Part shown: positions 14,197-31,815 of the stretch, in pieces
Layout: every line of letters starts with the position of its first letter
How positions within the stretch are numbered: the first letter of the stretch is position 1
Source of the DNA: Vicinamibacterales bacterium
GTDB taxonomy: Bacteria; Acidobacteriota; Vicinamibacteria; Vicinamibacterales; UBA8438
Reading direction: 5' to 3'
Length of the DNA: 64,000 nt
Assembly (NCBI GenBank): GCA_965206285.1
Contig: OZ242205.1
Location: forward strand, 3,330,149 to 3,394,148
Translations under genes and position numbers: made by a program
Notes under the pieces: generated by a model
Told to the model about the DNA's origin: nothing
Seen by the model: the letters and a program-made list of their open reading frames with translations, nothing else
The model's database searches: none

Positions 14197-14410
14197 CCGC
14201 CACCTCGACCTGCGTCACGTAGATTTCGTCGCGCAGTCGGCCTTCGATTTCTTCCGCAGAGGCTGTCTCGAAAAACAGCGTGAGCGCTTCCTCGAGGTTG
14301 TCCCGCGCCTCAGCGACGGTATCTCCCTGGCTGACGACATCCACTTCCGGGCAGAGGGCCACGTAGCCGTCGTCCTCACGCTGGATGATCGCGGTCAGCT
14401 TTCTGTTCAT
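14189..14410 (-). CDS. hicB: HicB-family antitoxin (UPF0150 fold)
   Basis: MNRKLTAIIQREDDGYVALCPEVDVVSQGDTVAEARDNLEEALTLFFE. ATG at 14410 within ORF 14189-14470. Confidence 0.8.
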   Translation of the reverse strand: MNRKLTAIIQREDDGYVALCPEVDVVSQGDTVAEARDNLEEALTLFFETASAEEIEGRLRDEIYVTQVEVAVG

Positions 14411-14900
14411 CGGTGCTCTCCAGCTACGTCGGTCATCTGCCGTAGCCAACGTCACTTTCTCCAAAACCACAGCCTCATTCCGGCGCCATCTTTCCCGTTA
14501 CAAAGCACCAACCCCCACTCCAATACGCCGTGATCCCCCAGCTCGCTCGGAACGTGTGGCAGCAGGTCGATGGCGGGACCCGCCGCCGTGGCCGGCCGCC
14601 GCTTGATCATGGCCAGCAACACCGGCCGCGTCAACGCCAGCAAGATCGCGGCCGGTCGCGGGCGTGAATCAGCCCGGAGCTGCAGCTCGTCAACGAGGCC
14701 GCGGTCGCCGGCGTTCATGCCCGTCCTCTGCCCCACCTGCCATCGGCCCCGCGCCGACGGGCCCAGGCGCTGCTAGCCCCGGCGAGCCCTGGGCGCGGAA
14801 AGAAGGTCCACACGGACACCGGGCGAGCCTCGGCCTTCGGCGACGTAGGCGAGGGCGGGGTGGTGGCCGTCGAGCTCGGGCGTCGGAGTCGTCGGAGGGC

Positions 14901-14985
14901 GGAGGCCTCGACGAGACGCTGGGTCGGGCGGGGCGGCGGTCGGTCCGCTCGAGACGGGTGGGTAGTGGACTCACGGGCTGCCCCC
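14901..14985. repeat. Dispersed ~40-85 bp repeat, copy 1 (GGAGGCCTCGACGAGACG...GGTGG.GGACTCACGGGCTGCCCC)
   Basis: Aligned by eye with 15850-15932 and 17739-17776. Confidence 0.7.
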
Positions 14986-15076
14986 GCCCCGGTAACCGTG
15001 ACCGCCAACACGCACCGCCCTCACACGTCGCGCCACGCCACATCGCCCCCGATCGGCGGTGCCGTCGAGCACGACA

Positions 15077-15206
15077 CTTGAGCGCCATGACAGCAACGCC
15101 GACCTTGGCGAGGGCGTCGAGCATGGCGACGATCTGACCCAGCGACCGACCGAGCCGCGAGAGTCGCTACGACCAGGCGGTCGCCGCGCTGGAGGACGCT
15201 CATCAG
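15077..15206 (-). pseudogene. Serine recombinase (resolvase/invertase) catalytic-domain remnant
   Basis: LMSVLQRGDRLVVATL (frame of ORF 15021-15263) continues as SRLGRSLGQIVAMLDALAKVGVAVMALK (frame of ORF 14690-15124). This matches the GD.LVV..LDRLGRS core. The N-terminal Ser region and the C-terminal HTH are absent. Confidence 0.45.
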
Positions 15207-15849
15207 CTCCTCAGCTTTTGGATCCCAAACCTCTTCACTACCACAGATTGCTGCGCCGTCCATCGGCAGTCACGACTCTGATGTATGGAGTGAGGGCGTT
15301 GAAGTCACGGGCGTTGCCCGTCCCTATCCTGAAGGCGTGGTCGCTGGTCGTCTTGCATGTTTCCGCCTCCCCTGGGTGCGGCCTGTCGTCATCGTCCGTG
15401 CCGTGCGCGTTTCCAGCGTCCGGCCGGCGTCGACGTGGGGGCACGGCGCCGTACGAGTCCGACTGCCTCGCCGAGGCCGCGATCGATCCCGAGCGCCTCG
15501 ACTGGAGCATCCGCCTCAGATCACGATGCGCTCGATCTCGTCGGCCGTGACGGGTGTCCGCCGTCCGGTCGTAGAGTTTCGTCGTCTTGGGCGACGCGCG
15601 TGACCGGCGATCTGCTGGGCGTGCTCGAGGGTGCCTCCGTTCGACAGACGTACCTCACATGGGAGTCGGCCTGCGGCCCGGTGCGAAAACAGCCGGAAGA
15701 GCCACCGACCCCCTACCGGCCACGCGCCTCTCCCCGACTCTACACGAATCTGGTCGGTACCATTTCATGGCACGCCCACCCTGCCCAGCGACCCCCCGCG
15801 CGGGCCCGGCGCAGGCGCGGCTCCGTCAGCCGGCGAGCCGTCGGAGCGC

Positions 15850-15932
15850 GGAGGCCTCGACGAGACGGGGGTGGGTGGTCGGCGCGCGGTCGCTCGAGAC
15901 GGGTTGGTGGTGGAACTCACGAGCTTGCCCCC
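15850..15932. repeat. Dispersed repeat, copy 2
   Basis: GGAGGCCTCGACGAGACGG...GGTGGTGGAACTCACGAGCTTGCCCC. The flank CTGGAACTCGTCGTCCGAGG resembles CGGAATCTCGTCGTCGGGAA next to copy 3. Confidence 0.7.
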
Positions 15933-16091
15933 CAGTCGGCCGCCCCGCAGCAGGTCGGCGGCCTGGAACTCGTCGTCCGAGGGTGCCCGCGTCAGCTCGC
16001 CCGCGCTGCAGGTCGTCGCCCGTCGCTCGCGATGCGCGAACACGGGCGGGCCGGAGCAGCTCGTCCTCGGTCGAGGGGGCAGCGGGAAACG

Positions 16092-16346
16092 CTATTCGCC
16101 AGCAGGTGGCGTAGGCAGGTGGAGCCGTTCCAACGTTTCGAGACGCTGGTCGACCTTACCGAATGCGACTTCAACGGCGCGGAGGCGGGTGTCGAAACCT
16201 TCGAGACGGGCGTTCACGTCCCTCAGATCGGCCCGAACATCTCCGACCATCGTGACCACGACGGCGATCACAGCCCCCGCCGACGCGATGATGGTGGTGA
16301 CGATCGCGACGCCAGTCCCAACGATCCACTTCGCGTCACTGGTCAT
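16092..16346 (-). CDS. Small membrane-anchored coiled-coil protein
   Basis: MTSDAKWIVGTGVAIVTTIIASAGAVIAVVVTMVGDVRADLRDVNARLEGFDTRLRAVEVAFGKVDQRLETLERLHL. This is the tail of the long ORF 16092-17384, whose remainder looks non-coding. Confidence 0.45.
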   Translation of the reverse strand: MTSDAKWIVGTGVAIVTTIIASAGAVIAVVVTMVGDVRADLRDVNARLEGFDTRLRAVEVAFGKVDQRLETLERLHLPTPPAGE

Positions 16347-16987
16347 GCAACCACAGCCTACCATGAGTGGGCGGTCACCCGCCGCGGTGGACGGTGACCA
16401 ACACCCCGGCCGCGACGGCGACTTGTCGGCCCAGCGGGGAACGCTCACCTCGCTGCGCCTCATCCCGGCCATTGAAGAGGAGAATCCCTGGGCGGCGCGG
16501 TCCGCGGCCCCGGGAAAACCGGCCCCCCGGATCATGGCCGGGACCACCCGCGTCGTCAAATAGCGCGATCCACACGCCAGTCGCGACGCGTGCGAATCGC
16601 CGGAGCTGCAGGTCGTCGCCGGCCGGTCGTGCTCCGCGGCAGGAGCGGCTGGATCGACGCGCAGGTCCACTGCGGCGCCGCCGAGCCCGCAGCCGTCGGA
16701 CGCGGTCTTCGTCCCACGCACTCGCCGCGGCCTGGAGGTCGACGGTCGACCGAAGCCTGTCACCTCGTCGCACGGCAGCGACAAGACTTCGTCCAGCAGC
16801 TTGCCGGACGCGGGCGTGGTCAGCCGGGGGGGGGGGCTGCCTGGAGTTCCGCCCCGCCCAATCGGACCGCGCCAGCGGGGGGGCGGCGACGCCCCCCCGA
16901 AACGAGGGCGAGCCAGGTCCAAGAGGTCGCCCCCAGCAGCGGGGTCCGTCCGCCCGCCGGTCGCCTTCTCTGATACGATCTCTGATC

Positions 16988-17280
16988 GTGAAGACCCTCG
17001 CCCTTCGTGATCTGCGTACACATGTTCGCGAGGACACCCATCCGCAGGAGGCGTTCGCGAGGACACCCTGCTGACCGCCAACAACGGTCGGCCGGTCGCC
17101 GTACTGCTGCCTGTCGACGCCGGTACAGTCGACGAGACGCTTGAGGTTGTACGCCGCGCCCGTGGTCTCGAAGCGCTTCGGGCGATACGTCGCGAGAGCC
17201 AATCGAGCGGCGCCGCCCGCATGACGCCGGCCGAGATCGACGCACTCGTCACCCGCACGCGTCGTTCTCGCCCCCGTTGA
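16988..17280 (+). pseudogene. Phd/YefM-like antitoxin, frameshifted
   Basis: GTG at 16988 gives VKTLALRDLRTHV... The rest (DTLLTANNGRPVAVLLPVDAGTVDETLEVVRRARGLEALRAIRRES...) lies in another frame. A local duplication CGCGAGGACACCC...CGCGAGGACACCC sits at 17027-17068. The stop is 9 nt before the PIN start. Confidence 0.5.
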
Positions 17281-17288
17281 GCGCGGGA

Positions 17289-17693
17289 ATGCAGATCGTC
17301 CTCGACACGAATGTCCTCGTTTCCGGTTTGCTCTCCGCTACCGGTCCGCCGGGCAGAATCGTCGAGGCAGCGCTCGCCGGACACCTGCAGCTTGTCTTCG
17401 ACATGGCGATTCGTCGAGAGTACGAGGACGTACTCCGCCGGCCGGAGCTGGCGTTGCCTGCAGGTCGCGTCGACGATCTGTTTGCGACCATCGACGAATT
17501 CGGCCGGCGAGTGGCGGCGGTACCGTCATGGTCGACCGGGCTGCCCGATCCGAACGACGGGATGTTCCTCGCGGTTGCGGCAGCGACCGCGAACGTCCTT
17601 GTGACCGGTAACACCCGTCATTTCCCACAACGTTGCCGTGGTGGGGTCGTCATCCTCACGCCACGGCAGTTCGTCGATCGCCGCCATCCTTGA
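17289..17693 (+). CDS. PIN-domain toxin (putative TA toxin, TIGR00305-like)
   Basis: MQIVLDTNVLVSGLLSATGPPGRIVEAAL...DPNDGMFLAVAAATANVLVTGNTRHF. Confidence 0.8.
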   Translation: MQIVLDTNVLVSGLLSATGPPGRIVEAALAGHLQLVFDMAIRREYEDVLRRPELALPAGRVDDLFATIDEFGRRVAAVPSWSTGLPDPNDGMFLAVAAATANVLVTGNTRHFPQRCRGGVVILTPRQFVDRRHP

Positions 17694-17738
17694 AGTGGAT
17701 CACGTGACCCCGGAGGTCGGTCGCGTCGCGTTTCCCTC

Positions 17739-17776
17739 GGAGACGAGGTGGTGGACTCACGGGCTGCCCCCCCCCC
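17739..17776. repeat. Dispersed repeat, copy 3 (partial)
   Basis: GGAGACGAGGTGGTGGACTCACGGGCTGCCCCCCCC. Confidence 0.65.
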
Positions 17777-18381
17777 AGGCCCGGAATCTCGTCGTCGGGA
17801 ACGCAAGCCTTGAACCAGCGGCGTGACCGCGCGCGGACTGTCGCCGTCCCAGACCCGGCCGTTTCGGGGGCCCCGGCCCGGCCGGCCGGACACCGCCCGC
17901 TCAACATCCGCCCTGGTCGCCGTCATGGATCTCCCCCCGTCAGCCGCTCCCAGGCGGCGCGCGCCGCCACAGGGTCGCTTATGCGGACGTTCCCCGGCAA
18001 GCTCCGAACGGCGCCGGGGCGCTTCTCTGGTGGCGGTGCCGGCGGGGGCGCCGGTTTCCGTAGCTCGCCCCCGGCCACGTCCGAAAGGGACCACAGCACC
18101 CGGTAAACCCGCGCCGTGTGTTTCTCGAGCCTCACCAGATCCGGGGCGCCGCCCATCAACGCGCCGCACCGTTCGGCCGCGGCGCGGTCCGGGTGCAGGT
18201 GGCACACGTCGCCAGCCGTCACCAGCGCGCCCGGCCGTAGCGGGTTACAGGATATCGCCCAGGTCACGATGTGGACTCCCCGAGCCGCGCCATTGCATCG
18301 GAAAACGCGGCCGTCCCGTCCATAATCCCGAGCCGGACATGGCAGGGTTCGCACCACAGCGATCGGTGGTGCATCTCGGTG

Positions 18382-18798
18382 CTACGACTTGGGTCCAAAC
18401 ATCGGCAGGAACATGTCATACATAGCCTTCGCCGCCGGATACTTCTGGATTAGTTCCGCCGTGTTCTTCATGAAGATATTGCCAGACTCCTTCTCAGTCT
18501 CCGCGTGGAAGTGATGAAACTTCGCGTATATCAGGATGCCTTCTCCGTTGGAGTCGAGAAACAGGTCCGCATCGACCGCTCCCCGCAGCACGAGCGAGGC
18601 CGCCATTTCCCAGAAGCTCAGCGCCTGCCTCCACAGCACGTTGTCTGCGGCTGTCATGTCCCGTGAGACCGCCCGCAACTCATCCAGGTTCTTCGGGTTG
18701 AAAGCAAAACCCATGAAGTGTCGAGCCTTGCGGAGTGTTTCTTCGCGTCGGAGGTCATAGAGCCGCATCACGATCTCTGCGTCTGCCGCTGTCGCCAT
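18382..18798 (-). CDS. Conserved hypothetical protein (lower GC than surroundings)
   Basis: ATG at 18798 gives MATAADAEIVMRLYDLRREETLRKARHFMGFAFNPKNLDEL...YAKFHHFHAETEKE... The codon usage looks clean, unlike the upstream part of ORF 18382-19434. Confidence 0.6.
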   Translation of the reverse strand: MATAADAEIVMRLYDLRREETLRKARHFMGFAFNPKNLDELRAVSRDMTAADNVLWRQALSFWEMAASLVLRGAVDADLFLDSNGEGILIYAKFHHFHAETEKESGNIFMKNTAELIQKYPAAKAMYDMFLPMFGPKS

Positions 18799-18963
18799 TG
18801 TGTTCGGTTCTCCTTCTGAGCCGGGATTTCCGTGTTGCCTGCCCCGGATGGCCTCTTTATACACCCGAGAGCCGCCGACTGTACCATGACTTCGCCTCCG
18901 GCGTACGCGACGACCGGCCGGGACTCGACAGCTGCTTGCGCTCCCTGCGGAAAGGGCGACGTG

Positions 18964-19146
18964 CTCGTCGGGTGGAATCCCGAGCAGGCGGCTCACCGTC
19001 GTCGGGTCCGTCACCTGCGCCAGATACGCCGCCAACTCTTCGACCGCCGCCGTGAACACGCTGCTGCCATCCGCCACGGCACCCGCTCGAACCTTCACCC
19101 CGCACCGCGCGCACGACACCCGCCACGGCGTATACTGCAGCCTCAC
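18964..19146 (-). mobile_element. ISL3-family transposase N-terminal remnant
   Basis: VRLQYTPWRVSCARCGVKVRAGAVADGSSVFTAAVEELAAYLAQVTDPTTVSRLLGIPPDEHV has a zf-ISL3/HTH-like layout. There is no DDE domain and no terminal repeats. Confidence 0.5.
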
Positions 19147-19278
19147 CGCATCCGGCCCCACGGCAGATGCCGCCACACCCGCGCGGGTTCGCCCGGTCAT
19201 ACCGCAGCGGGCCACCGACCGAGTGCCGCCGCAGCCCGACGAGACCGGCAGCCGCCAGCGCCCTCTGGACCCCAAACG

Positions 19279-19812
19279 ATGACCGACGACAAGACGGACG
19301 TACCCTGCCCGACCAGGACCCTGGCCGTGCGCTCCGACGGAACGATCGTCCGGGGACTGGCGGCCACCGGGACCGAAGCCCGCCGCTGGCTCGAAGCCGT
19401 GCAGACCCACGGCCGCAGAACCGCCCTGGCGCAAGTCGCGTTAGCCGCGACGACACCGGCGACACCGGGAGAGGGCCACAAGGGGACGACGGTCTCCGCC
19501 CGCAACTGGCGAGTCGTCACCGACTGGACGACCCCGGGCGCGGAGACCTACGACCCCAGAGGACTCGAGGAGACACCGCCGGGGAGCCGCACAGTGATAA
19601 TCGACCAGCAGGGCGAGCTCCACGAGCTGACCGCCCCCGCCGACCCCGCGCCGGACAGCAACCCCAGGACGTTTCTGGAATACCTCGCCGCCCTCGGAAC
19701 GGCCGGGAAACACCCCCTGGCCGTCGTCCACGCGGCCCCCGCGGCACCGCCCTGGATCGGAGTGCAACGCGACCGGACGGGCGTGACGGAACTGACCGGC
19801 GACGATGACTGA
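19279..19812 (+). CDS. Hypothetical protein
   Basis: ATG at 19279 (MTDDKTDVPCPTRTLAVRSDG...). The stop overlaps a following ATG (GATGACTGA). No recognisable domain; may be non-coding. Confidence 0.25.
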   Translation: MTDDKTDVPCPTRTLAVRSDGTIVRGLAATGTEARRWLEAVQTHGRRTALAQVALAATTPATPGEGHKGTTVSARNWRVVTDWTTPGAETYDPRGLEETPPGSRTVIIDQQGELHELTAPADPAPDSNPRTFLEYLAALGTAGKHPLAVVHAAPAAPPWIGVQRDRTGVTELTGDDD

Positions 19813-22562
19813 CAGCAAGCTCCCGACCGTCCCGCTGCCCCGGCACCTTCACCCACGGTCATGTTCCGCGATCCCCTCGCAATCGAAAAGTGCCGGCTCG
19901 AATCCATCCTCTGGGCGCGTCGCATCGCCGGGGGCGGTCGGTCGCAGGACTGATGCTCGCTCGGTCCGACCCGCGCCGCCGCAGGCCACACTGGAGGCCG
20001 GGATCTGGTCGTCGGGAACGGCAGCGTTGGCTGCGCCGGCTCCGTCTGGCCGCCGAACTCTCGTTGGGCTAGAATCGGAACCCATTGGAACACGCTCGGC
20101 CGGAGCCTGGAGCGCGTCGAGCGACGGACGATACAGCCCCTGGGAAAACTCATGAGTGTTATAGCAAAGGCAATCGCCGACCGCCAAAGTGAGATCGAGC
20201 GCCTGCAGGCGGAAATCAAGGCGTTGAACGACGTCGACAAGATGCTCGGGACCTCCGCTCCGGCGAAGCCCGCGGCTCGGCGCTCCTCCTCGCGGCGGCC
20301 GGCGGCTGCGGCCACCCCGGTCGCGGAGACCGCGTCCGACGCCAAGCCGACGAGGAAGCGCCGACCGATGACGGCCGAAGAGAAGAAGGCGGTTTCCGAG
20401 CGGATGACAGCCTCTTGGGCCGAGCGCAGAAAGAAAGCCGCGAAGTAGCCCGCCGGGGCCGCGACGAGTACGTGCCCGTCCGCGGTCGGTGTATCCTTCT
20501 GACCGCAGATCTTCCGAGGTCGTTCCCGCCACGCGGCGCGTCGAGCCAAGCGTCGACCCGCGCGGCCTCGTGGCCCGGCTGGGGGGCGTCGCGCCGTCCG
20601 CCCCCGGCCGGCACAACCAGCCCAGCGCGGGCCGCCCAATCGCCTGGAGCCCGTGCCGAGCAGCAGCAGACCGAGGGCTATCGCGCCGGCCACGGGCAAT
20701 GCCGGCACGGGTATCGGCTCCGCGGTCGGCGTCCCCGTCACCTCCGCCGACGGCGGGCCGTCGTTGGCGCCGGTCCGGGTCGCGATCACCCGCACCGTGT
20801 ATTCCGTGCCGTTGGTGAGACTGTCGATCGTGTGGCGCGTGGTCGACCCCGGAGCGACCGTGGCCTGCCGGTCGCCGGTGTCGTAGTCTTCGCTGCCCGA
20901 CTTCCACTGCACCTTGTAGCCCGTGGCGTTGTCCACCGCCGTCCAGGTCACCGCCAGGTGCGCGTTGCCCGGTGCGACCCCCACCCCCATCACCTGGCCG
21001 GGGGCGGTGGTGGTGGCGGGCAGGCTCAGACGCAGCGTTACGGTGTCGCCGGAGGACCAGGAGAGGCCGGTAACAAAGATGAATGCGAGACTTGAGGTGC
21101 GTCCCAGTGCGGACCAGAAGTCAAGATCCGCAGCGCAGACATGTAGCCGCAGCCCGGCCCTATCCCCGGCCGTGAGTCTGGTATTGGTCGTGGCAAAGGT
21201 CAGCACCGGCCGCCTCAACGAAACCAGCCCGATCGTGTATTCGTTCGCACGGACGGTGAAGGTCTGGTCGTCCAGGCTGCCGAAGCTCCCGCTCTCGTAA
21301 CCGAACGCGCCAGCCTTGTCGGGATCGACGGCCACCGTCATCGAACTGGTCCAGATCACGTTGCGGCCGCTCAGGGCGGGGACGGCGCAGGCGGCCGTCC
21401 CCGCCGCGGCCACCGGCGCCGTCGGCTCGCTGGTGAGCGTCTCGGTATTGGCGCCGTCGTCGGCGAAGGTCACCCTCACCTTGATCGTCTTGCCCAGGTC
21501 GGCGTCGACCAGGGTGTAGGTGTTCGAATTCGCGCCCGAAATGTTGGCATCCGTGCCGTTCACCCGGATCCACTGGTACTCGTACATGGGGCTGGTCAGC
21601 CCGTCCGCATCCGTGATGCCGGTGGTGGCCGCCGTCAGCGTCTGGCCCAACTGCGCCGTGCCCGCGATGGTCGGCGCGCCCATCGCCGCGTTGTTCGCCG
21701 GCGTCACATTGACCGTCATCGTGTAGGCGCTGTCGCTGTCGACCGTGCCGTCGTTCACCTTGAAGGTGAAGGTCGTGTAGGGAGTGCCGCTCCCGCCCGT
21801 CACCGGGGTGAAGACAAGCTTGCTCGCGTCGATGTCGGCCTTCGTGACGGCCAGGTTCGCCGTGACCGCCGTGCCGTCGTACGTCAGCGAGCCCACCCCC
21901 GGCAGCGTCACGATCCTCACGCTCGCCAGCGTGTCGCCGGTGTCCGTGTCGGCGAAGCCGAAGTCGTCCGCCTCGAAGGCGTACGCGCTGTCTTCGCCCG
22001 TCGTCAACGTCTTGTCGGCCGCCGTCGGCGCGGTGTTGGTGGAGGCGGCGGTGAGCTTGACCGTGATGTCGGTGCCGGCGGTCAGGGAGACGCCAGAGCT
22101 GTCCCAGATCCTGCTGCGGGCGGTGATGGTGTCGGCGTCGGCGAGGACGAGGGAGGTGCTGCCGACCACGAGGGTGAGGGCGGCGGTGGCGGTGGTGATG
22201 TCGGCGTCGACCTCGAAATCGAGACTCTCCGTCGGAGCGGACGAAGAGCACGGTGATGTTGTAGTCGGTGGAGTCGTGGTTGAAGCTGTCTTCGGAGAGG
22301 ACGGAGGTGCTGCTGCATCGCGCGGTGTCGACGCCGTTGGTGCAGCCGAGGGCGCCGAAGCGCTGAGGTCGGCGGGGGTGAGGGTGGCGGTCCAGACCTC
22401 GGTCTGGGCCTGCGCGGGCGCGGCCAGGGCCAGCAGCGTGGCGGCGGCCAGCAGGGCCACGCAGGCCCGCGCGCCACGCAGCAGGGTTGCGGCGTTGTCA
22501 CGCGGGCGGAGCCGCCGCCGCAGGGAGGACCGGTGCGGTTCGCTTGCGCTCAGCCGAGACAT
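19548..22562 (-). CDS. Adhesin B: cadherin-like/FN3 surface protein with signal peptide. The ORF lacks a stop after the sorting signal and reads through about 350 extra codons.
   Basis: Starts MSRLSASEPHRSSLRRRLRPRDNAATLLRGARACVALLAAATLLALAAPAQAQTEVWTATLTP. One GYKVQW FN3 module. Sorting module AEPIPVPALPVAGAIALGLLLLGTGSRRLGGPRWAG ends at ~20619. Downstream of that point the ORF is antisense to gene 20152-20448. Confidence 0.7.
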   Translation of the reverse strand: MSRLSASEPHRSSLRRRLRPRDNAATLLRGARACVALLAAATLLALAAPAQAQTEVWTATLTPADLSASAPSAAPTASTPRDAAAPPSSPKTASTTTPPTTTSPCSSSAPTESLDFEVDADITTATAALTLVVGSTSLVLADADTITARSRIWDSSGVSLTAGTDITVKLTAASTNTAPTAADKTLTTGEDSAYAFEADDFGFADTDTGDTLASVRIVTLPGVGSLTYDGTAVTANLAVTKADIDASKLVFTPVTGGSGTPYTTFTFKVNDGTVDSDSAYTMTVNVTPANNAAMGAPTIAGTAQLGQTLTAATTGITDADGLTSPMYEYQWIRVNGTDANISGANSNTYTLVDADLGKTIKVRVTFADDGANTETLTSEPTAPVAAAGTAACAVPALSGRNVIWTSSMTVAVDPDKAGAFGYESGSFGSLDDQTFTVRANEYTIGLVSLRRPVLTFATTNTRLTAGDRAGLRLHVCAADLDFWSALGRTSSLAFIFVTGLSWSSGDTVTLRLSLPATTTAPGQVMGVGVAPGNAHLAVTWTAVDNATGYKVQWKSGSEDYDTGDRQATVAPGSTTRHTIDSLTNGTEYTVRVIATRTGANDGPPSAEVTGTPTAEPIPVPALPVAGAIALGLLLLGTGSRRLGGPRWAGCAGRGRTARRPPAGPRGRAGRRLARRAAWRERPRKICGQKDTPTADGHVLVAAPAGYFAAFFLRSAQEAVIRSETAFFSSAVIGRRFLVGLASDAVSATGVAAAAGRREEERRAAGFAGAEVPSILSTSFNALISACRRSISLWRSAIAFAITLMSFPRGCIVRRSTRSRLRPSVFQWVPILAQREFGGQTEPAQPTLPFPTTRSRPPVWPAAARVGPSEHQSCDRPPPAMRRAQRMDSSRHFSIARGSRNMTVGEGAGAAGRSGACCQSSSPVSSVTPVRSRCTPIQGGAAGAAWTTARGCFPAVPRAARYSRNVLGLLSGAGSAGAVSSWSSPCWSIITVRLPGGVSSSPLGS
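20152..20448 (+). CDS. Small basic coiled-coil protein (possible nucleic-acid binding)
   Basis: MSVIAKAIADRQSEIERLQAEIKALNDVDKML...KRRPMTAEEKKAVSERMTASWAERRKKAAK. Lower GC. A TAGAAT box at ~20069 lies upstream. Confidence 0.55.
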   Translation: MSVIAKAIADRQSEIERLQAEIKALNDVDKMLGTSAPAKPAARRSSSRRPAAAATPVAETASDAKPTRKRRPMTAEEKKAVSERMTASWAERRKKAAK

Positions 22563-22722
22563 GACGCACCCCGTCGGCTCTCGGCGTGACGGCCGGTTCT
22601 TCTGGAGTACGATTCATTTCTGAAGAACAAACTCATTCCGGTGCTCCCACTCCCTGACAGTTCCGGCATGCTCGAAACCGGTCCGCACGATTCAGGCGGC
22701 CGAGGCCCCGGAGCCCTCCACG
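22563..22722 (-). promoter_or_regulatory. Conserved adhesin 5' leader, copy B (no AT-rich promoter attached)
   Basis: 22563-22722 aligns with 27379-27624 apart from the extra heptamers and a ~78-nt insertion in copy C. It contains the stem GTTCTTC(19 nt)GAAGAAC at 22596-22629. Confidence 0.5.
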
Positions 22723-23135
22723 GCGAGCCTGCGCATCAGCGCCAGCCTCGGCCTCGAGACGGTGCTGAACGAGGTCGTCGAGAGCGCCCGGGCCCTCACC
22801 GGCGCGCGCTACGGCGCCCATCGCCACCATCGACGAGGCCGGCGCCCCCCAGGACTTCGTCACCTCGGGCTTCACCGCGGACGAGCACCGGCACATCGTG
22901 GAATGGCCCGACGGGCCGCGGCTCTTCGAGCTCTTCCGCGACCTGCCGGAACCGCTGCGCATCCCCGACGTGCCCGCCCATGTCCGCGCGCTCGGCTTCT
23001 CGCCCGACCGGCGGCTGCCCTCGAAGACCTTCCAGGGCACGCCGATGCGCCACCTCGGCGTCCATGTCGGCAACTTCTACCTGGTCGAGAAGGCGGGCGG
23101 GGAGGCGTTCACGGACGAGCGCGGGGTCGGCTACC
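22723..23135 (+). pseudogene. GAF-sensor gene stub 2 (lacks promoter and first ~25 codons; frameshifted)
   Basis: SLRISASLGLETVLNEVVESARALTGARYG, then an extra C in the run at 22817-22819, then EWPDGPRLFELFRDLPEPLRIPDVPAHVRALGFSPDRRLPSKTFQGTPMRHLGVHVGNFYLVEKAGGEAFTDERGVGY. It ends at the duplication joint 23135/23136. Confidence 0.65.
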
Positions 23136-26100
23136 AGCCCAGCGCGGGCCGCCCAATCGCCTGGAGCCCGTGCCGAGCAGCAGCAGGCCGAGGGCTATCG
23201 CGCCGGCCACGGGCAATGCCGGCACGGGTATCGGCTCCGCGGTCGGCGTCGCCGTCACCTCCGCCGACGGCGGGCCGTCGTTGGCGCCGGTGCGGGTCGC
23301 GATCACCCGCACCGTGTATTCCGTGCCGTTGGCGAGGCCGTCGATCGTGTGGGTCGTGGTCGACCCCGGAGCGACCGTGGCCTGCCGGGCGCCGGTGTCG
23401 TAGTCGTCGCCGCCCGACCTCCACTGCACCTTGTAGCCCGTGGCGTTGTCCACCGCCGTCCAGGCCACCACGAGCTGCGCGTCGCCCGGTTCGACCGTCA
23501 CCCCCGTCACCCGGGCGGTGTCGTTGTCGTTCACCGTCACCGCCACGCCGGCGATCGGGATGCCCTCGTAGCCGCTGTCCGGGCTCGCCGCGCCGTGGGT
23601 CAGCGAGACCGACTCGTCCGCGGTGTCCGCATCGTTGCCGGCCGTCACCGTCACCGTCCGGGCCGTGTCCCAGTCCGTCGTGGTGAAGGTCAGGGCGCCC
23701 GGGGTCGGGGTCACGGCCGTGCCCGCGTGCCCGCCGACCGTGACCGTGACATTCGCCGTCGGCCGGGTATCGAGGACCACCGTGTAGCTGTCCCCGGTCG
23801 GGTCCTCCTCCGGCACCGTCAGCGCCGACTTCGACACCGTGACGCCCGGCGTGGTCGGCACCGCCGGCATCCCCGTCACCTCCGCCGCCGGCGGGCCGTC
23901 GGCGGCCCCGGTCCGGGTCGCGATCACCCGCACCGTGTATGCCGTGCCGTTGGCGAGGCCGGAAATCGTGTGGCTCGTGGTCGACCCCGAAGTGACCGTG
24001 GCCTGCCGGTCGCCGGTGTTGTAGTCCTGGCCGCCCGACTTCCACTGCACCTTGTAGCCCGTGGCGTTGTCCACCGCCGTCCATCTCACCACCACTTGCG
24101 AGTTACCCGGTGCGACCGTCACTCCCGTCACCTGCTCGAGGGGCTCGCTCGGCGGCGGCGGTGGCGGGGGCGGGGGCGGCGGCGGCGGGGACACCGTCGG
24201 CGTCCCCGTCATCTCCGCCGACGGCGGGCCGTCATCGGCGCCGGTCCGGGTCGCGATCACCCGCACCGTGTATTCCGTGCCGTTGGCGAGGCCGGGAATC
24301 GTGTGGCTCGTGGTCGACCCCGAAGTGACCGTGGCCTGCCGGTCGCCGGTGTCGTAGCCCTGGCTTCCCGACCTCCACTGCACCTTGTAGCCCGTGGCAT
24401 TGTCCACCGCCGTCCAGGTCACCACCAACTGCGCGTCGCCCGGCGCGACCGTCACCCCCATCACCCGGGCCGTGGCGTTTACCGCCGGCGTCCCCGTCAT
24501 CTCCGCCGACGGCGGGCCGTCGTCGGCGCCGGTCCGGGTCGCGATCACCTGCACCGTGTATTCCGTGCCGTTGGCGAGGCCGGGAATCGTGTGGCTCGTG
24601 GTCGACCCCGGAGTGACCGTGGCCTGCCGGTCGCCGGTGTTGTAGCCCTGGCTTCCCGACCTCCACTGCACCGTGTAGCCCGTGGCGTAATCCACCGCCG
24701 TCCACGTCACCACCAGCTGCGCGTTGCCCGGTGCGACCCCCACCCCCGTCACCTGCTCGAGGGACACCGTCGGCGTCCCCGTCATCTCCGCCGACGGCGG
24801 GCCGTCGGCGGCGCCGGTCCGGGTCGCGATGACCTGCACCGTGTATTCCGTGCCGTTGACGAGGCTGTCGATCGTGTGGCGCGTGGTCGACCCCGAAGTG
24901 ACCGTGGCCTGCCGGTCGCCGGTGTTGTAGCGCTGGCTCAGGGACCTCCACTGCACCTTGTAGCCCGTGGCGTTGGCCACCGCCGTCCAGGTCACCACCA
25001 GTTGCCCGTTGCCCGGTGCGACCCCCACCCCCGTCACCTGCTCGAGGGGCTCGCTCGGCGGCGGCGGAGCCTGTCCACAGTCGACGGAGATCCGATGGTC
25101 GGCCGCATCGGAGGTGTGCCAGACGCGACCGAAACCAGAGAGCGTCTCGCACGAAAACCGATGCAGGTCAGGCTTGGTCCTGCGCTGTACCTCGCCAGTG
25201 AATCTCAGCTCATCGCTGTTCCCAAGGGTTGGTTCATCGCCGCCCTCGTCGAACTTTTCGACAAACAACGCGCTTCCCTCGGACGTCCAGATCGCTCGGA
25301 TCTGTCCGTCATCGGACACCGCACACGGCAGCGTGTCGTGCCGACTCGTTTCAACAAGAGCCAGCACGTTGTCGGCGTTGGGGTCCGAGTCGCACGCGAG
25401 TGCCGTGACCGCAACGTTGACCTTGTGGCGGGTCCTGGCGCCCACCTCCTGGTGGGTGAGCACGGCGGTGAGCCCGCCCATCGTGCCCACGATCGCGTCC
25501 CCCGTGTCGAGCTTGATCGTGCGGTCCTGATTCCCGGCCCAGATGCCGTTGTCGTCGATGTCGTCTGCCACGACCGTGTAGCTGAACACGAGCGCCGTCG
25601 TGCCCGAGCCGCTCGACAGCACGGCGCGCCGACGGGTCGGGGGAGGCATGCCTTGGGTGCAGCTTCCTGCGCCCGAACTGCCCAGGCAGAACTCGAACTC
25701 CGGCGTGCCCGTGACCGTCACGGCCTGGTCGAAGGTCACCGTGAACTGGATCATCTCGCCGGTCTCGTAGACGGTGCCCGATGCCGGCATCGAGGTGACG
25801 TCCACGTTGTTCACCATCGGGGCGGTGTTGGTGCCGGTGCCCGTCGTCCCGCTGCCCGGGCCTGACCATGCCCCGTCGCCGTCGGAGTTCACCGCGAGCA
25901 CGTGCACCTGGTAGGACGTCGCCGCCGTCAGGCCGGTGATGGTCGCCGTCCTCCCGGTGCCCGTATGCGGATGGTTTATCCAATTGCCGCTCACGCCCGC
26001 CCGGTACTCCACCTTGTAGCCGGTGATCGCCGGGCGCCGGTGATCGCCGGGCCGTGTTGAAGAGCGGCGCCGCCCAGCTCACGTCCAGGCTCGTCGTGCT

Positions 26101-27378
26101 CCCCGAGGTCGCCGTCACCGTGGGCATCCCCGGCGCCAGCGGCTTCTCCACCGCGTTGTCAACGGTGATCGTCACCGCGATCGTGTCCGTGCCGCCGTTG
26201 CCGTCGTCGGCCTTCACCGTCACCGAATAGCTTGCCTTGGTCTCCCGGTCGAAGTTTAAACCACCCTGCGTCCGGATCTGCCCGCTGGAGTCGATGCTGA
26301 ACTTCGCCGCGTCCGTGCCTTCCAGGCTGTAGGTGAGCGTGTCGCCATCCGCGTCCGTCGCCGTCACCACGGCGCCCACGTCGACCGCATCGGGTTGAGC
26401 GGGGCCCACCGACTCGGTGAAGCTCCGGGTCGCCGTGGCGGTCCGCAAACACCGGGGGGGTGTTGGCCGCCGAGACCACGATATCGAAGGTGTCGCTGAC
26501 CGAGTCGGTGCCGTCGTTCGCCGTCACCTTTACCGAGACGGTCCCCAGGTCCGCGGTCGCCGGCGTGCCCGAGAACGTGCGCGTGGCGGCGGTGAAGCTC
26601 AGCCACGAGGGCAGCGCGGAATCGTCGGATTGGGTCGCCGTGTAGGTCAGCGTGTCGCCGGTGTCCGTGTCGGCGAACGTGTTGGCCGGAAACGCATAGT
26701 TGAGCGCCGTGCCCACCGTCGCCGTCTGGTCATCGATCGGGTTCGCCACCGTCGGGGCGGCGTTGGTGGAGGCGGTCAAGGTGAGCTTGACCGCGATGTC
26801 GGTGCCGACGGTCAGGGATGACGCCAGAGCTGTGCCCGACCCTCTTGCGAAAATACTGAATGGTGTCGGCGTCGGCGACCGGATCCGCAGTCCGGAGTCC
26901 GTGCTGCCGACCACGAGGGTGAAGGAGAACGACAAAATACGGTGGCGGTGGTGTCGTCGTGCGTCGTAAACGCTCGCCTGAATTCGAACTGTCGGTCAGG
27001 TCGGCGACCTCTACTCCAGGGAGCTCCAGAAGTGCCCTTGGTGATGTTGTAGTCGGTGGAGTCGTGAGTTGAAGCTTGTCGTTGGGACGAGGACTTCCGG
27101 AGGTGCCGCTGCATCGCGCGGTCGTAAATTGTTGACGCCGGTTAGGCTGATAGCCGCTGGATGCCGTTTGAGTTCTTGAGTTTGTCGCCGGGGGTGAGGG
27201 TGGCGGTCCAGACCTCGGTCTGGGCCTGCGCGGGCGCGGCCAGGGCCAGCAGCGCGGCAGCGGCCAGCAGGGCCACGCAGGCCCGCGCGCCACGCAGCAG
27301 GGTTGCGGCGTTCTCACGCGGGCGGAGCCGCCGCCGCAGGGAGGACCGGTGCGGTCCGCTTGCGCTCAGCCGCGGCAT
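23109..27378 (-). pseudogene. Adhesin C: largest cadherin-like/FN3 surface-protein paralogue. The 3' 2.9 kb is open; the 5' 1.4 kb is broken by several frameshifts and stops.
   Basis: Start at 27378 (MPRLSASGPHRSS...AQAQTEVWTATLTPGD) hits a stop at 27142. The remainder is spread over ORFs 26812-27114, 26730-27317, 26159-26935, 25351-26448 and 23109-26012. An indel/duplication lies at 26030-26060 (GGTGATCGCCGGGC twice). Five GYKVQW FN3 modules. The tail matches adhesin B. Confidence 0.75.
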
Positions 27379-27390
27379 GACGCACCCCGT

Positions 27391-27414
27391 CGGCTCTCGG
27401 CTCTCGGCTCTCGG
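27391..27414. repeat. Heptanucleotide tandem repeat (CGGCTCT)x3, 13 nt upstream of the adhesin C start codon
   Basis: Read directly: cggctct cggctct cggctct cgg. On the coding strand this is (GAGAGCC)3. Confidence 0.9.
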
Positions 27415-27460
27415 CGTTTCCCTCCGCTGCTGGCCGCAGCGCCGGGAAACGCCGAGAGCC
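27406..27460 (-). promoter_or_regulatory. Perfect 17-bp inverted repeat (hairpin) in the adhesin C leader
   Basis: GGCTCTCGGCGTTTCCC (27406-27422) pairs with GGGAAACGCCGAGAGCC (27444-27460). The 21-nt loop contains GCTGC/GCAGC. It is absent from the copy B leader. Confidence 0.6.
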
Positions 27461-27677
27461 GGCACAGCAAGTCCGGCCGGGCCGCCCGGCGGCGTGACGG
27501 CCGGTTCTTCTGGAGTACGATTCATTTCTGAAGAACAACCCATTCCAGTGCTCCCACTCGCTGACCGGCATGCCCGAAACCGGTCCGCACGATTCCGGCG
27601 GCCGAGGCCCCGGAGCCCTCCACGCGGCCCTGCCAGGCCCTCCCGCAAACCCGTCCCCACAAGATTTTGCTCCTGGT

Positions 27678-27809
27678 GATTATAGACGATAAGTTCGTTA
27701 AAATAACGTCTTTTATGACGTCGTCTACGCGAATAACTAGCGAATTATACGCGACATTACCGAATATCTCCAAAATCATCACCGCCGGCGGGCGGAAGGG
27801 GGAGAACCG
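27678..27809. promoter_or_regulatory. AT-rich divergent promoter island (adhesin C on the minus strand, GAF gene on the plus strand)
   Basis: The only strongly AT-rich stretch in the region. Perfect TATAAT on the minus strand at 27679-27684. Palindrome ACGTCTTTTATGACGT at 27706-27721. Phased 11-nt direct repeats GCGAATAACTA/GCGAATTATAC/GCGACATTACC/GAATATCTCCA at 27729-27772. GGAAGGGGGAG SD-like box before the ATG at 27810. Confidence 0.5.
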
Positions 27810-28323
27810 ATGACCGATCGCGACCGGACGGCGGCCGAGAACGAGGCGCTGCGCGCCCGCATCTCCGCCCTCAGCGCGGCCAGCCTGCGCATCAGCGCCA
27901 ACCTCGGCCTCGAGACGGTGCTGAACGAGGTCGTCGAGAGCGCCCGGGCCCTCACCGGCGCGCGCTACGGCGCCATCGCCACCATCGACGAGGCCAGCGT
28001 CCCCCAGGACTTCGTCACCTCGGGCTTCACCGCGGACGAGCACCGGCACATCGTGGAATGGCCCGACGGGCCGCGGCTCTTCGAGCTCTTCCGCGACCTG
28101 CCGGAACCGCTGCGCATCCCCGACGTGCCCGCCCATGTCCGCGCTCGGCTTCTCGCCCGACCGGCGGCGGCCCTCGAAGACCTTCCAGGGCACGCCGATG
28201 CGCCACCTCGGCGTCCATGTCGGCAACTTCTACCTGGTCGAGAAGGCGGGCGGGGAGGCGTTCACGGACGAGCGCGGGGTCGGCTACCGCATGGCCCGGC
28301 CCGGCGAGGCGGACGAGCCCTGA
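27810..28323 (+). pseudogene. GAF-sensor gene stub 3 (has promoter and start; 2-nt deletion; truncated)
   Basis: MTDRDRTAAENEALRARISALSAASLRISANLGLETVLNEVVESARALTGARYGAIATIDEASVPQDFVTSGFTADEHRHIVEWPDGPRLF...HVRA. A CG deletion near 28152 (relative to 22985) shifts the frame. The rest (LGFSPDRR...GGEAFTDERGVGY) lies in ORF 28135-28323. No kinase domain follows. Confidence 0.7.
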
Positions 28324-28501
28324 CCGGCGGCGGCCGGGCCCGCCCGTGCACCGCCGGCCTCAGCCGCGGAACACCCGGCACGCGGCTGCGCCGGCAGGGT
28401 CAGCTGCCTGGTCCCCGCAAGTGACTCATGAAAGGTGGGAGAGCCTGTTACCGCCTTCGCGACGGGCGCAACAAAGCGGAGCCGCAAGGCGATTTCCGGG
28501 C

Positions 28502-31051
28502 TTACGGCGTCAGCCGCTCCAGGCGCAGCAACCGGACGACCGGCTCGGCGGCGGCGCGCGAGGCGGCCAGGTCCACCTCGAGCTCGGCCACCCAGTCGTT
28601 GTGCCCCTTCGCGTCCACCAGCATCTGCTCCACCCGCCACGACGCGCCGTCGTCCGACGGCTCGGTATGCGTGTGCCGCCGGTTGCGGCCCTCGGGGTCC
28701 AGGCGCAGGCCGCCGTTCTCCGCCGCGAACGTCTCCCGCGCCCGCGCCAGCCGCTCGGCCGTCCAGGCCCCGCCGCCCCCGTCGAGTGCGGTGTCGAGGA
28801 GCTCGAGCGCGGCCTCGTCGTCGCCGGTCGACCAGGCGCGCAGCAGGGCGAACACGCGCGTGCGGATGGCGGCGGTGAAGGCGCGCGCATCGCGCGTCAC
28901 GTCGACCGGCTCGTCGCGGCCGGGCACGGCCGGTTCGGGCGCGCCCGCGGGCGCGGGCTGGAAGTCGGGGTCGCGCATCCGCTCCCATTCCTCGAGCAGA
29001 CTCGAATCCACCCGGCGCACGAGGTCCCGGAGATAGAGCTCCATCTCCACCACCTCGTCGGTCTTCATGCCGTCGGGCACCGTCTGCCGGAGCACCTTGT
29101 AGACGCTCGAGAGATGCCGCAGCAGCAGCCCCTCCATGCGTTCGAGGCCGTACTCCCGGACGTAGTCGGCGAACGAGAGGTAGGTCTCGAACATCTCCCG
29201 CGCGATCGACTTGGGCCGCACGTTCTCCTCGCCGACCCACGGGTGCCGGCCGGCGAAGTCGTTGAAGGTCCCGTAGACGAAGTCGGCGAGCGGCTTGGGG
29301 TGCTCCAGCTTCTCGAGCTCCGCCATGCGATCCTCGTAGTCGAGGCCGGCCGCCTTCATCTCGGCCACCGCCGCGCCCTTCAGCTTGTCGAGCTGACGGC
29401 GCAGGATGGCGGTCGGGTTCTCCAGGATGCTCTCCACGAGCGTGAGCAGATCGAGGGCGTGGTTCTCGGCGTCGGGGTCGAGCACCGGGATCGCCTCGAT
29501 GAGGTAGAGCGACAGCGCCTGGTCCATCGAGAAGTCGTCCTGGAGCTCGACGTTCACCCGCACCCGCGAGCCGTCGGGGGTGCGGGGCACGATCTCGACG
29601 ACCTTGCGCGCCACCAGGGCCCGGAAGAGCTGCCAGCCGCGGCGCCGGTGCGCCCGCTTCGCGGCGTCCGATTCGTGGCTGTCGCGCACGAGCTGGCGCA
29701 TCGCCCCGCAGCCGTCGCCGCGGCGCGACAGCACGTTGAGCAGCATGCCGTGCGAGACCGCGAAGCGCGACTTGAGCCGCTCCGGGCGGGCGCCGACGAG
29801 CCGTTCGAACGTTCCCCGGTCCCAGGGCGCGAAGTTGCCGCGCGGCGGCTGGCGCCGGACCACCTTCTTGCCGGCCTTCGCCTTCTCGGCGAGCCGCCGG
29901 TTCTCGATGACGTGCTCGGGGGCCTGGGCCACGACGTAGCCGCGGTCGTCGAAGCCCTTGCGCCCGGCGCGGCCGGCGATCTGGTGGAAGTCGCGGGCCG
30001 AGAGCACCGCCGTCTTCTCCCCGTCGTACTTCGAGAGGCGGCTGAAGAGCACGGTGCGAATCGGCACGTTGACGCCGACCCCCAGCGTGTCGGTGCCGCA
30101 GATGACCTTGAGCAGGCCCCGCTGGGCGAGCTGCTCGGCGAGCACGCGGTACCGGGGCAGCAGGCCCGCGTGGTGGATGCCGATGCCGTGCTTCAGCCAG
30201 GTGCGGACGCGGGGGCCGTACGGCGTCGAGAAGCGCACGTCCGCGATGGCCGCGGCCAGGGCCTGCTTCTCGGGGCGGGTCGCGATCTGCAGGCTCGTGA
30301 AGCTCTGGGCGCTCGTACCGGCGTCCTTCTGGGTGAAGTGGACCACGTAGACCGGGACCCGGTCCGCCTCGACCAGCCGTTCCACCGCCCGCGCAAGCGG
30401 CTCCTCGGAATAGGCGTACTCCAGCGGGACCGGCCGCTCGCTCGAGGTGACGGTCACCGTCGCCCGGCCCGTCCGCCGCGTGAGCTCCTGCTCGAAGAAC
30501 GACACGTCGCCGAGCGTCGCCGACATCAGCAGGAAGCGCGTCTGCGGCAGGGTCAGCAGCGGCGCCTGCCAGGCCCCGCCGCGGTCCCGGTCGGCGTACC
30601 AGTGGAACTCGTCCATCACCACGTCGTCCACCGCCGCCTGCTCCCCCTCGCGGAGCGCCATGTTGGCCAGGATCTCGGCCGTGCAGCACAGCAGCGGAGC
30701 GTCGCGGTTGACGGTGGCGTCGCCGGTGGCCAGCCCCACGTTCTCGGGTCCGAACTCGCGGCACAGGGCCATCCACTTCTCGTTGACGAGCGCCTTGATG
30801 GGACAGGTGTAGACCGAGCGCCGCCCGCGGGCGAGCGACGCGAAGTGCAGCGCGAACGCGGCCAGCGACTTGCCCGAGCCGGTCGGCGTGCTCAGGATGA
30901 CGTGCTGGTCCTCGAGCAGGGCCAGAATCGCCTCCTCCTGGGCGGGATAGAGAGTCAGGCCCAAGCGGTCGACGTAGTCGAGAAAGCGGTCCAGCAGATC
31001 GTCGCTGGACACCTCGCCGGACGGCAACAGGTCGAACAGGGGCGCGGTCAT
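28502..31051 (-). CDS. DEAD/DEAH-box helicase with DUF3516-type C-terminal region
   Basis: ATG at 31051 gives [10 protein letters not shown]... Walker [16 protein letters not shown] box, SAT-like MSATLG, then a long helical C-terminal region. ORF 28502-31201. Confidence 0.9.
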
Positions 31052-31170
31052 GCCGGAGATTGTCGCCCCACTGCGTCCGTTGGCGCCAATCCGCGGGACC
31101 GCGGACCGGCGGCGGGGCCCGCCCGCAGCGTCCCGGCGGCGTCTTGCCGCTGCCCGCCCGCGGCGATACG

Positions 31171-31815
31171 ATGGGCAACATGACGGTCGCCGACGCGGCA
31201 CCGGCCGCGACGCCCACGTCGCCGGAAGCGCTGCATGCCCTCCTGCGCGAGATCCTGCCGCCCCAGGGCGCCTGGAGCGACGAGGAGTACCTGTGGCTCA
31301 CGGACAGGTGCAAGCGTCTGGTCGAGTTCACCGACGGCCACGTTCAAGAGCTGCCGATGCCGACCTTCACCCACCAGGCGATCCTCGCGCTGCTCTATCG
31401 CCTGTTCCACGCGCATCTCGAGCCGCGCGGGGGCGTCGTGCTGTTCGCGGCGTTGCGGCTGCGCATCCGGGAGGGCAAGTTCCGCGAACCCGACCTGCTG
31501 CTGCTCCGCGACCGCTCGGATGCCCGCTGCCGGGACCGCTACTGGCTGGGTGCGGACCTGGTGGCCGAGGTCGTCAGCCCGGACGACCCGGACCGCGACT
31601 TGGTCGTCAAGCGCGCCGACTACGCCGAGGCGGGCATTCCGGAGTACTGGATCGTCGACCCCCGCAACGAGACGATCACCGTGCTCGCGCTCGAAGGGAC
31701 CGGATACGTCGAGCACGGCGTATTCGCGCCCGGCGACACGACGACCTCGCCGCTGCTCGCCGGATTCGCCGTCGACGTGACAGCCGTGTTCGACGCTCCG
31801 CGGTCCGGCGCCTGA
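31171..31815 (+). CDS. Uma2-family (DUF820) endonuclease-fold protein, second copy
   Basis: ATG at 31171. [20 protein letters not shown]...REPDLLLL...[38 protein letters not shown]. Confidence 0.85.

Follow-up and report, generated by a model that had tools for sequence, protein, structure and literature searches.

Probable microhomology-mediated tandem duplication, paralogue recombination and decay of an adhesin–regulator cassette in a strain-specific island of a Vicinamibacterales genome

The window analysed here is a 64,000-nucleotide stretch of contig OZ242205.1 (GenBank assembly GCA_965206285.1, positions 3,330,149 to 3,394,148 of the forward strand) from a genome in the Vicinamibacterales. 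It holds copies of a cassette in which a modular adhesin gene is transcribed divergently from the gene of a regulator that begins with a GAF domain. All adhesin copies (A, B, C and a scrap) read from the minus strand, the GAF pieces from the plus strand, and every adhesin copy and both regulator stubs are defective. Two cassettes stand head to tail as tandem unit 1 (20619–23135, 2517 bp), with adhesin B, and tandem unit 2 (23136–28288, 5153 bp), with adhesin C, as delimited by string search, self-BLASTN and global alignment. The initial annotation, made from the letters of the window, had read the string at 23123–23161 as a joint between the two, and the exact matches behind that reading are real: GGGGTCGGCTACC occurs exactly twice in the window, at 23123–23135 and 28276–28288, and AGCCCAGCGCGGGCCGCCCAATCGCC exactly twice, at 20619–20644 and 23136–23161, whereas neither appeared in 100 shuffles. 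The claim that these are two tandem units of one segment also stands, since the direct units have both ends in common. By self-BLASTN and global alignment, their adhesin 3′ ends (20619–21009 and 23136–23526) are 93.4% identical, with 26 mismatches in 391 nt and no gaps, and their GAF-stub ends (22713–23135 and 27867–28288) are 98.6% identical over ~423 nt, with 6 mismatches and 3 small indels. Identity is 96.5% in the proximal leader where it is present in both units and ~77% in the adhesin 5′ ends (21927–22585 and 26648–27401), and the interiors are unrelated by self-BLASTN.

Only the middle junction of this arrangement is new. The joint 23135/23136 (23133–23138) contains the triplet ACC, which is also found at 20616–20618; the left flank of B ends in CACAACC and the unit in GGCTACC, with these 3 nt in common. 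On the left, the tail of B, GGPRWAG/CAGRGRTAR (the slash marks the unit boundary), runs on as in the adhesin P0125 of locus L085, which ends in CAGRGRTARLPR and a stop (L and P numbers denote comparison loci and proteins), and window 20997–20590 matches L085 DNA at 94.9% across the 20619 boundary. On the right, ERGVGY/RMARPGEADEP with the stop after it is the native ending of the full-length regulators of L081, L082 and L085. The third GAF copy had been taken to end at 28288, which proved incorrect, as it continues natively to a stop at 28321–28323. The single-copy state without the junction exists for the adhesin in L085 (P0125) and for the regulator in L081, L082 and L085. Because both outer flanks continue natively in these outgroup loci, 23135/23136 is a true novel join.

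A join of this kind could be an assembly chimera of similar cassettes from different loci or strains, as the genome is metagenome-derived and the region is rich in 285–330-bp FN3 repeats at ~90% identity. However, the joint lies in unique sequence with 3 nt in common, which is not a typical site for an assembler mis-join, and the flanking repeats differ by 1.4–6.6% and have private indels. The outer flanks also match the outgroup loci base for base, and the source contig is 6.89 Mb long; we therefore consider such an artefact very improbable. It is extremely improbable that a transposase or site-specific recombinase moved a mobile unit next to itself. In relatives, cassettes with GAF fragments do occur at unrelated loci in surroundings rich in insertion sequences (IS), and an ISL3 remnant lies close by in the window, but the GAF fragments are cut at varied points, which argues against a defined element end. 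The units themselves end inside the coding sequence of both genes, global alignment found no terminal inverted repeats or target duplications at their ends, and Pfam and NCBIfam searches of the units returned only adhesin and GAF domains, with no recombinase or transposase. The units thus lack the defined termini, target duplication and transposase or integrase of a transposon, IS or integron-type cassette. Instead, a novel join with 3-nt microhomology, ends inside genes and no recombinase is the hallmark of an illegitimate tandem duplication mediated by microhomology.

Comparison with related loci reveals what the cassette looked like before it was damaged. The full regulator, of which the window retains only fragments, is a 785-residue protein with GAF, PAS, HisKA, HATPase, REC and winged helix-turn-helix (wHTH) domains, in that order, transcribed divergently from the adhesin. 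L085 has two intact 785-residue regulators (7357–9714 and 14616–16973) with GAF, HisKA, HATPase_c, Response_reg and Trans_reg_C domains, one of them directly divergent from P0125. In L082 the regulator gene is frameshifted and its divergent neighbour encodes a Cadherin/FN3 protein longer than 4092 residues, L083 and L084 carry regulator stubs beside adhesin-like genes, and the relatives from P0001 onwards carry PF13185/PF01590 (GAF). The gene arrangement in L082, L084 and L085 therefore defines the native cassette as an adhesin with a dedicated one-protein two-component regulator. The adhesin is presumably adhesive, and its position suggests that it would be under the control of the regulator. 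The initial annotation had described the unit as adhesin, leader and front of a GAF sensor; this was right yet incomplete, as the first ~155 GAF codons are confirmed but belong to the 785-residue regulator, and the stubs carry an earlier internal deletion. The adhesin–regulator pairing recurs in relatives (L082 and L085, and as stubs L083 and L084) and could help to annotate metagenome-assembled genomes (MAGs) of this kind.

Hybrid two-component systems, which combine sensor kinase, receiver and DNA-binding domain in one protein, sit by their target loci, for example in the polysaccharide utilisation loci of Bacteroides. The cassette regulator is similar in that one polypeptide holds the sensor, kinase, receiver and DNA-binding output and lies beside, and divergent from, its presumed target. 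In contrast to the Bacteroides proteins, its sensor is a cytoplasmic GAF-PAS module rather than a periplasmic one, and its output domain is an OmpR-type Trans_reg_C rather than AraC-type. Our first protein search seems to have returned matches only up to ~1.75 times the query length (at most 280 residues for a query of 160, 1158 for 662 and 1692 for 967) and missed the 785-residue regulators of L085. The idea that the regulator is systematically truncated in all homologues has been largely withdrawn, as full-length proteins of ~770–825 residues make up 32 of the best 150 matches. Public data also contain many shorter open reading frames (ORFs) of the regulator family, with end points spread from residue ~111 to ~260, and L081 and L082 have independent disruptions in the PAS region of the regulator. 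In the window, which has 70% G+C and abundant long spurious ORFs, third-position G+C was used to separate true frames from false ones. The plus-strand ORF at 28058–31183 was rejected as a GAF sensor, since it has no Pfam hit and the helicase gene on the minus strand has a third-position G+C of 0.94 and DEAD and DUF3516 domains.

The regulator remnant of unit 2 (27810–28323, plus strand) consists of GAF codons 1–155 fused at 28272/28273 to the last 16 codons of the gene, which encode RGVGYRMARPGEADEP before the stop. It reads GEAFTDE/RGVGYRMARPGEADEP, whereas full regulators end in NERGVGYRM(A/P)RPGE and further residues before the stop. The deletion junction is an in-frame fusion with a 5-nt microhomology, ACGAG; one CG of a (CG)3 run at ~28143 is also missing from the stub, which shifts its frame. 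The GAF stub of unit 1 (22713–23135, plus strand) holds regulator codons ~20–155, the deletion junction and 16 nt of the regulator tail, with no start codon and a 1-nt insertion. The same 16-mer across the deletion junction, ACGGACGAGCGCGGGG, is present in both units, at 23111 and 28264, and both stubs share derived substitutions relative to L082, L084 and L085. Because of this common junction and these common substitutions, the stubs are sister copies of one regulator gene that had already suffered the deletion.

The adhesins are built of FN3 modules (6 stretches in C, 5 in A and 1 in B) and Cadherin, Cadherin_3, Cadherin_4 and He_PIG modules, according to Pfam; NCBIfam gave domain-level or sub-threshold matches only. 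Among the FN3 motifs, B has one GYKVQW, C has five GY[KT]VQW and one GYKVEY, and A has three of GYKVQW type and two GYKVEY. The earlier counts of one, five and three GYKVQW modules in these copies are therefore correct, with the GYKVEY modules to be added, and the signal peptides of B and C are near-identical, as had been noted. Profile searches, which had been proposed for FN3, cadherin and IPTL-CTERM modules, confirmed the first two but not the third. The C-terminal tail of A (PVPALP, a hydrophobic stretch and RR) scored 14.4 bits (E 0.036) against the IPTL-CTERM sorting domain (TIGR04174), under the 20.5-bit cutoff, and the tails of B and C gave no match to this model; therefore, the anchor is IPTL-like in shape only.

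Adhesin B (20590–22562, minus strand) has a signal peptide, an N-domain, cadherin-like and Ig-like modules, one FN3 module and the anchor. Its conserved, Cys-containing N-domain is out of frame for ~50 codons between compensating frameshifts at ~22350 and ~22215, neither of which lies within a homopolymer. The ORF of B runs on to 19548, 356 codons into foreign DNA, because a 6709-bp insertion (13881–20589), three codons before the stop, has displaced that stop. The insertion lies between the two copies of a perfect 15-bp direct repeat (13866–13880 and 20590–20604; GGGGCGGACGGCGCG on the minus strand) and splits sequence that is contiguous in L085. On its far side, separated from B by the 6.7 kb, lie the orphaned native 3′ end and flank of a B-type adhesin (13567–13880, minus strand), with last codons for LPR and the TGA at 13853–13855; this stretch is 99% identical to L085 13348–13660, which follows the P0125 tail unbroken. 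The 314-nt intergenic stretch 13567–13880 is thus at 99% identity to L085 where neighbouring coding DNA is at 93–95% between the two genomes, and it may have been recently exchanged or be constrained. Rfam gave no match there (13300–14100 searched at E ≤ 1).

Adhesin C (23109–27378, minus strand) is a pseudogene, with its ATG at 27378, an in-frame stop at 27142–27144 and three or more frameshifts; the frame stays open for 989 codons, from 26078 to 23112, and the stop lies 9 codons beyond the joint. Adhesin A (8872–12105, minus strand), made of cadherin and FN3 modules and ending in the family-typical tail LLLLGTGGRALRRRARG before its stop, has no start codon or signal peptide. It is the 5′-truncated third copy that the initial annotation had reported at 8872, with its end now extended to 12105. 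It is colinear with the full-length adhesin of L084 at 95–97% identity and matches C at 94.7% over 1.3 kb and at 87% over 2 kb more (self-BLASTN). Its 5′ deletion junction lies within a heptamer array, (CTCGGCT)x7.7, at 12047–12100 (alignment and Tandem Repeats Finder, TRF), and the junctions that join it to its neighbours differ from the tandem joint. Beyond the array, 12101–12237 (plus strand) holds the distal leader and the first 22 regulator codons (ATG at 12168), identified by tblastn and by a BLASTN match of 93% to 27740–27879.

At the other end of A lie further fragments. A fourth scrap had been placed at 8330–8585; a B-type adhesin scrap, encoding LSWAVDDTITLRLSL, is indeed present, but only as ~79 nt or 25 residues at 8499–8575 (minus strand), with 82% identity to 20998–21076 by BLASTN and a tblastn match to residues 498–522 of B. 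It is followed by a remnant of the regulator's receiver-domain start at 8628–8711 (plus strand; APILVVDDNPETLR), found by tblastn with the histidine kinase–response regulator proteins of L081 and L082, and then by a degraded wHTH tail to ~8840. The adhesin paralogue family is large, and an intact paralogue, P0169, is found elsewhere on the 6.89-Mb source contig. Tracts of (CGG)11–13 at 9889–9921 and 24150–24188 encode poly-proline linkers between FN3 modules, and at such a tract the L084 orthologue has been called as two genes. An ISL3-family transposase at L084 5595–6830 breaks an otherwise full-length A-type adhesin.

Unit 2 is a mosaic, with B-type ends around an A/L084-type interior, and the earlier claim that copies in this locus had been reshuffled is to that extent correct. 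Informative sites within 23167–23526 comprise 22 at which C agrees with A, 9 at which C agrees with B and 4 at which A agrees with B; those shared with B cluster beside the joint, with a switch to A at ~23300. The body of C is thus B-like from 23136 to ~23300 and A/L084-like beyond, with 85–91% identity to the L084 adhesin further 5′. The leader of C is L084-like, including a 92-nt hairpin-containing insertion, and its stub is B-like. The combination of B-like ends with an A/L084-like body and leader therefore identifies unit 2 as a mosaic, which a gene conversion or double crossover could have produced once the duplication was in place.

These data also bear on a different origin of the joint, namely that two complete head-to-tail paralogous cassettes were fused by a microhomology deletion that took out the spacer together with the regulator end on one side of it and the adhesin end on the other. 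The unrelated interiors of B and C are in keeping with such a deletion scar, as is the 1.2-kb spacer between the adhesin and the next regulator in L085, and at the 3′ end of A the remnant of a regulator lies directly against an adhesin that still ends in its native stop, so that adjacent complete cassettes once existed here. However, both stubs share an identical internal-deletion junction and derived substitutions, which means that a duplication is needed anyway and a deletion adds one event more, and C carries the rare B-type tail for ~150 nt beside the joint. A deletion scar is therefore unlikely, and a tandem duplication followed by recombination accounts for the joint with fewer events. 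L085 provides a second case of repetition: a 2.4-kb direct repeat of the regulator (7349–9741 and 14608–17000, 99.2% identity) flanks its adhesin and is independent of the repeat in the window, so tandem repetition of the cassette is recurrent.

Between adhesin and regulator, unit 2 retains a divergent leader and promoter region (27379–27809), described by alignment, TRF and folding. It contains (TCGGCTC)x3.7 at 27390–27415, 12–37 nt upstream of the ATG of C (TRF), a perfect 17-bp hairpin (27406–27422 and 27444–27460), a predicted sigma-70-like promoter on the minus strand (27772 to 27744), and CGCGAAT-type repeats with 11-bp periodicity at 27725–27760. The three CGCGAAT-type repeats lie ~50–85 nt upstream of the regulator ATG and are kept in L081–L085; they look like putative OmpR-type binding sites. 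The whole leader folds far better than shuffled sequence (z = −4.6), and its counterpart is L084 9571–10000. In B only a leader remnant is left (22563–22712), in which the counterpart of C 27634–27866 has been deleted at a GCGGCC microhomology; the 233 nt lost comprise the promoter-like AT-rich part and the start of the GAF gene. The heptamer is present once in B, 3.7 times in C, 7.7 times in A and ~4 times in L084, and this variation is among paralogues only.

The variable heptamer, together with the conserved unit ends, variable middles and mosaic C, might suggest programmed surface variation. Anaplasma msp2, Borrelia vls, Neisseria pilE/pilS and Treponema tprK are surface-protein families in which segmental gene conversion operates. 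The window resembles them in its conserved ends and variable modular interiors, its mosaic copy, and its defective copies near fuller ones. In a programmed system, the defective copies would act as gene-conversion donors through conserved handles at the 5′ side (GAF stub, leader and signal peptide) and the 3′ side (last FN3 module and anchor), and the heptamer, at 1, 3.7 and 7.7 copies in B, C and A, would be a phase switch; the large paralogue family and the intact P0169 in the same genome would fit. In contrast to the known families, however, no single expression site is evident here. A, B and C all retain a leader, each copy having its own promoter or leader region, and B and C retain a start codon and signal peptide, so the would-be donors are not promoterless. 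The damage in A, B and C falls mainly at the 5′ end, so the parts required for expression have suffered most, and the copies give the impression of decay rather than maintenance. In addition, Pfam and NCBIfam searches of the units found no dedicated recombinase, and mosaicism is common in any multigene family. We regard programmed variation at this locus as distinctly improbable. A broader version, in which the cassette family is an actively recombining surface-diversification system of host-associated Vicinamibacterales, with the conserved ends as recombination handles, A, B and C as a sequence reservoir for intact paralogues, a structured leader of ~350 nt next to the front of the GAF regulator, and heptamer phase variation, seems to us quite unlikely. 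A history of duplication, recombination and decay accounts for the data better than active variation does.

The initial annotation had gone further in describing a locus with a built-in capacity to amplify the cassette, and this was overstated. The joint has a 3-nt microhomology and the units no recombinase, transposase or terminal repeats; the junctions of A are different, all copies are defective and the island around them is rich in pseudogenes. There is no evidence of a dedicated amplification machine in the window.

In our reading, which is probably correct, a genuine but ordinary microhomology-mediated tandem duplication was followed by paralogue recombination and decay in a strain-specific island. 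The ancestral unit would have comprised a modular surface adhesin (signal peptide, Cys-containing N-domain, He_PIG, cadherin and FN3 modules, and a C-terminal hydrophobic anchor) and the divergent 785-residue cytoplasmic sensor-regulator, and would have stood as one cassette at the helicase-proximal end of the island. Deletion of regulator codons 156 to ~769 at ACGAG would have left the GAF domain joined to the final 16 codons. Slippage between the two ACC triplets during replication or repair, by template switching or illegitimate recombination, may then have duplicated the segment that begins 16 codons short of the adhesin stop and ends 11 codons short of the regulator stop, creating the joint 23135/23136. 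Next, homologous recombination with an A/L084-type paralogue (gene conversion) could have replaced the interior of one unit, giving units of 2.5 and 5.2 kb that still have their ends in common. Decay would have come last, with the loss of 233 nt from the B leader and of a CG from the C stub, the adhesin frameshifts and stop, and the 6.7-kb insertion that displaced the stop of B.

Several observations weigh against this history. The two units differ widely in identity from one part to the next (98.6%, 93%, 77% and none), and a simple duplication model therefore needs the later recombination step. The breakpoint at 28288 is only 16 nt from the older deletion junction at 28272/28273, a coincidence estimated at ~5% under random breakpoints, and both breakpoints fall within the last 11–16 codons of the two genes, a hint of local structural bias. 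The two frameshifts in B leave its ORF open, so that their reality is not provable from sequence alone. Finally, a 23-mer across the joint had 0 matches in the metagenomes of the Joint Genome Institute (JGI).

Microhomology-mediated, RecA-independent tandem segmental duplication is well described in bacteria as the first step of gene amplification (for example PMC11721125, PMC11111574, bioRxiv 10.64898/2026.02.28.708716). The window agrees with this process in having two direct units, a single novel join with 3 nt in common, native outer flanks and later homologous recombination between copies. It differs in that its duplication is old, fixed and diverged (1.4–6.6%) rather than an unstable selected amplification, one unit has had its interior replaced by a paralogue, and no selective driver is evident for its defective copies. 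The locus reveals no new mechanism. It neatly illustrates, in nature, how a surface-protein family can grow and be reshuffled in an uncultured Acidobacteriota lineage, whereby a microhomology duplication takes along part of the neighbouring regulator, paralogue recombination swaps the interior, and insertions and frameshifts erode the copies.

Attachment proteins of 'eukaryote-like' FN3 and cadherin type are reported to be enriched in sponge-associated MAGs, with lateral transfer of their genes (Robbins et al. 2021, PMC8163846). The adhesins of the window are similarly modular FN3 and cadherin repeat proteins, occurring in many copies in Acidobacteriota-type MAGs. In contrast, that paper describes neither the N-domain (TEVWTATLTP, followed by GC, a further C and LSDDDFTYDSTDY) nor a pairing with a dedicated regulator, and the sponge habitat is that of the paper's MAGs.

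All adhesin and GAF copies lie in the strain-specific island (5744–28496, 22,753 bp), between the stop of a helicase gene and the rest of a conserved neighbourhood. The helicase (28502–31201, minus strand), with DEAD/DEAH and DUF3516 domains by Pfam and 80 orthologous loci, is a conserved anchor gene outside the cassette. In L001, from the closest species representative (helicase 96.7% identical at the nucleotide level), the counterpart of window 28497 is followed after 3 nt by that of window 5743, and over 10 further species have, directly after the helicase, the counterpart of window 1760–254, with a radical-SAM gene (253–1746). From the gene order in L001 and these other species, the whole repeat region lies within a 22.75-kb insertion, and none of the 80 helicase loci in related genomes has a GAF or adhesin homologue. 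Within the island, pseudogenes are frequent and codon periodicity is weak over 13.5–20.6 kb.

The 6709-bp insertion within the island carries a PIN_3 toxin gene (17277–17693), a DUF4760 gene in the ORF 18382–19434, an ISL3 transposase remnant (18976–19140) and a small basic coiled-coil ORF (20152–20448). A scan of its 20 ORFs of at least 120 residues found PIN_3, DUF4760 and the ISL3 remnant only, with no integrase, and its termini have no convincing repeats besides the 15-bp direct repeat. Behind the 22 regulator codons upstream of A, a frameshifted C-terminal fragment of a PQQ-dependent dehydrogenase-like gene is fused (~12240–12620, plus strand; RAYDKATG, WEQDLPAG and PMTYLHEGRQYIVVAVG), followed by an intact-looking Uma2 endonuclease gene at ~12790–13473.

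Just past the helicase stop, the sequence differs from species to species (window 1760–5743 compared with L001–L016). A 4-kb block with a MacB/FtsX-type permease (1801–4452) is common to the window and L001 and missing from most relatives, L012 has 3.2 kb of other sequence at this site, and L081, L083 and L085 are crowded with IS elements (IS91, IS21, IS66, DDE_Tnp_1 and rve). No Rfam family and no tRNA gene was found in the window. It does contain three copies of an intergenic double-hairpin repeat of ~60 nt, at 46473–46536, 48786–48855 and 60398–60468, with the segments GCGCGACCT, ACGGTCGCG, GAAGTTTCGC, GCGAAACTTC and GGCGCAAGC in this order, separated by one, three, four and three unspecified positions; it looks like a repetitive extragenic palindromic (REP) element.

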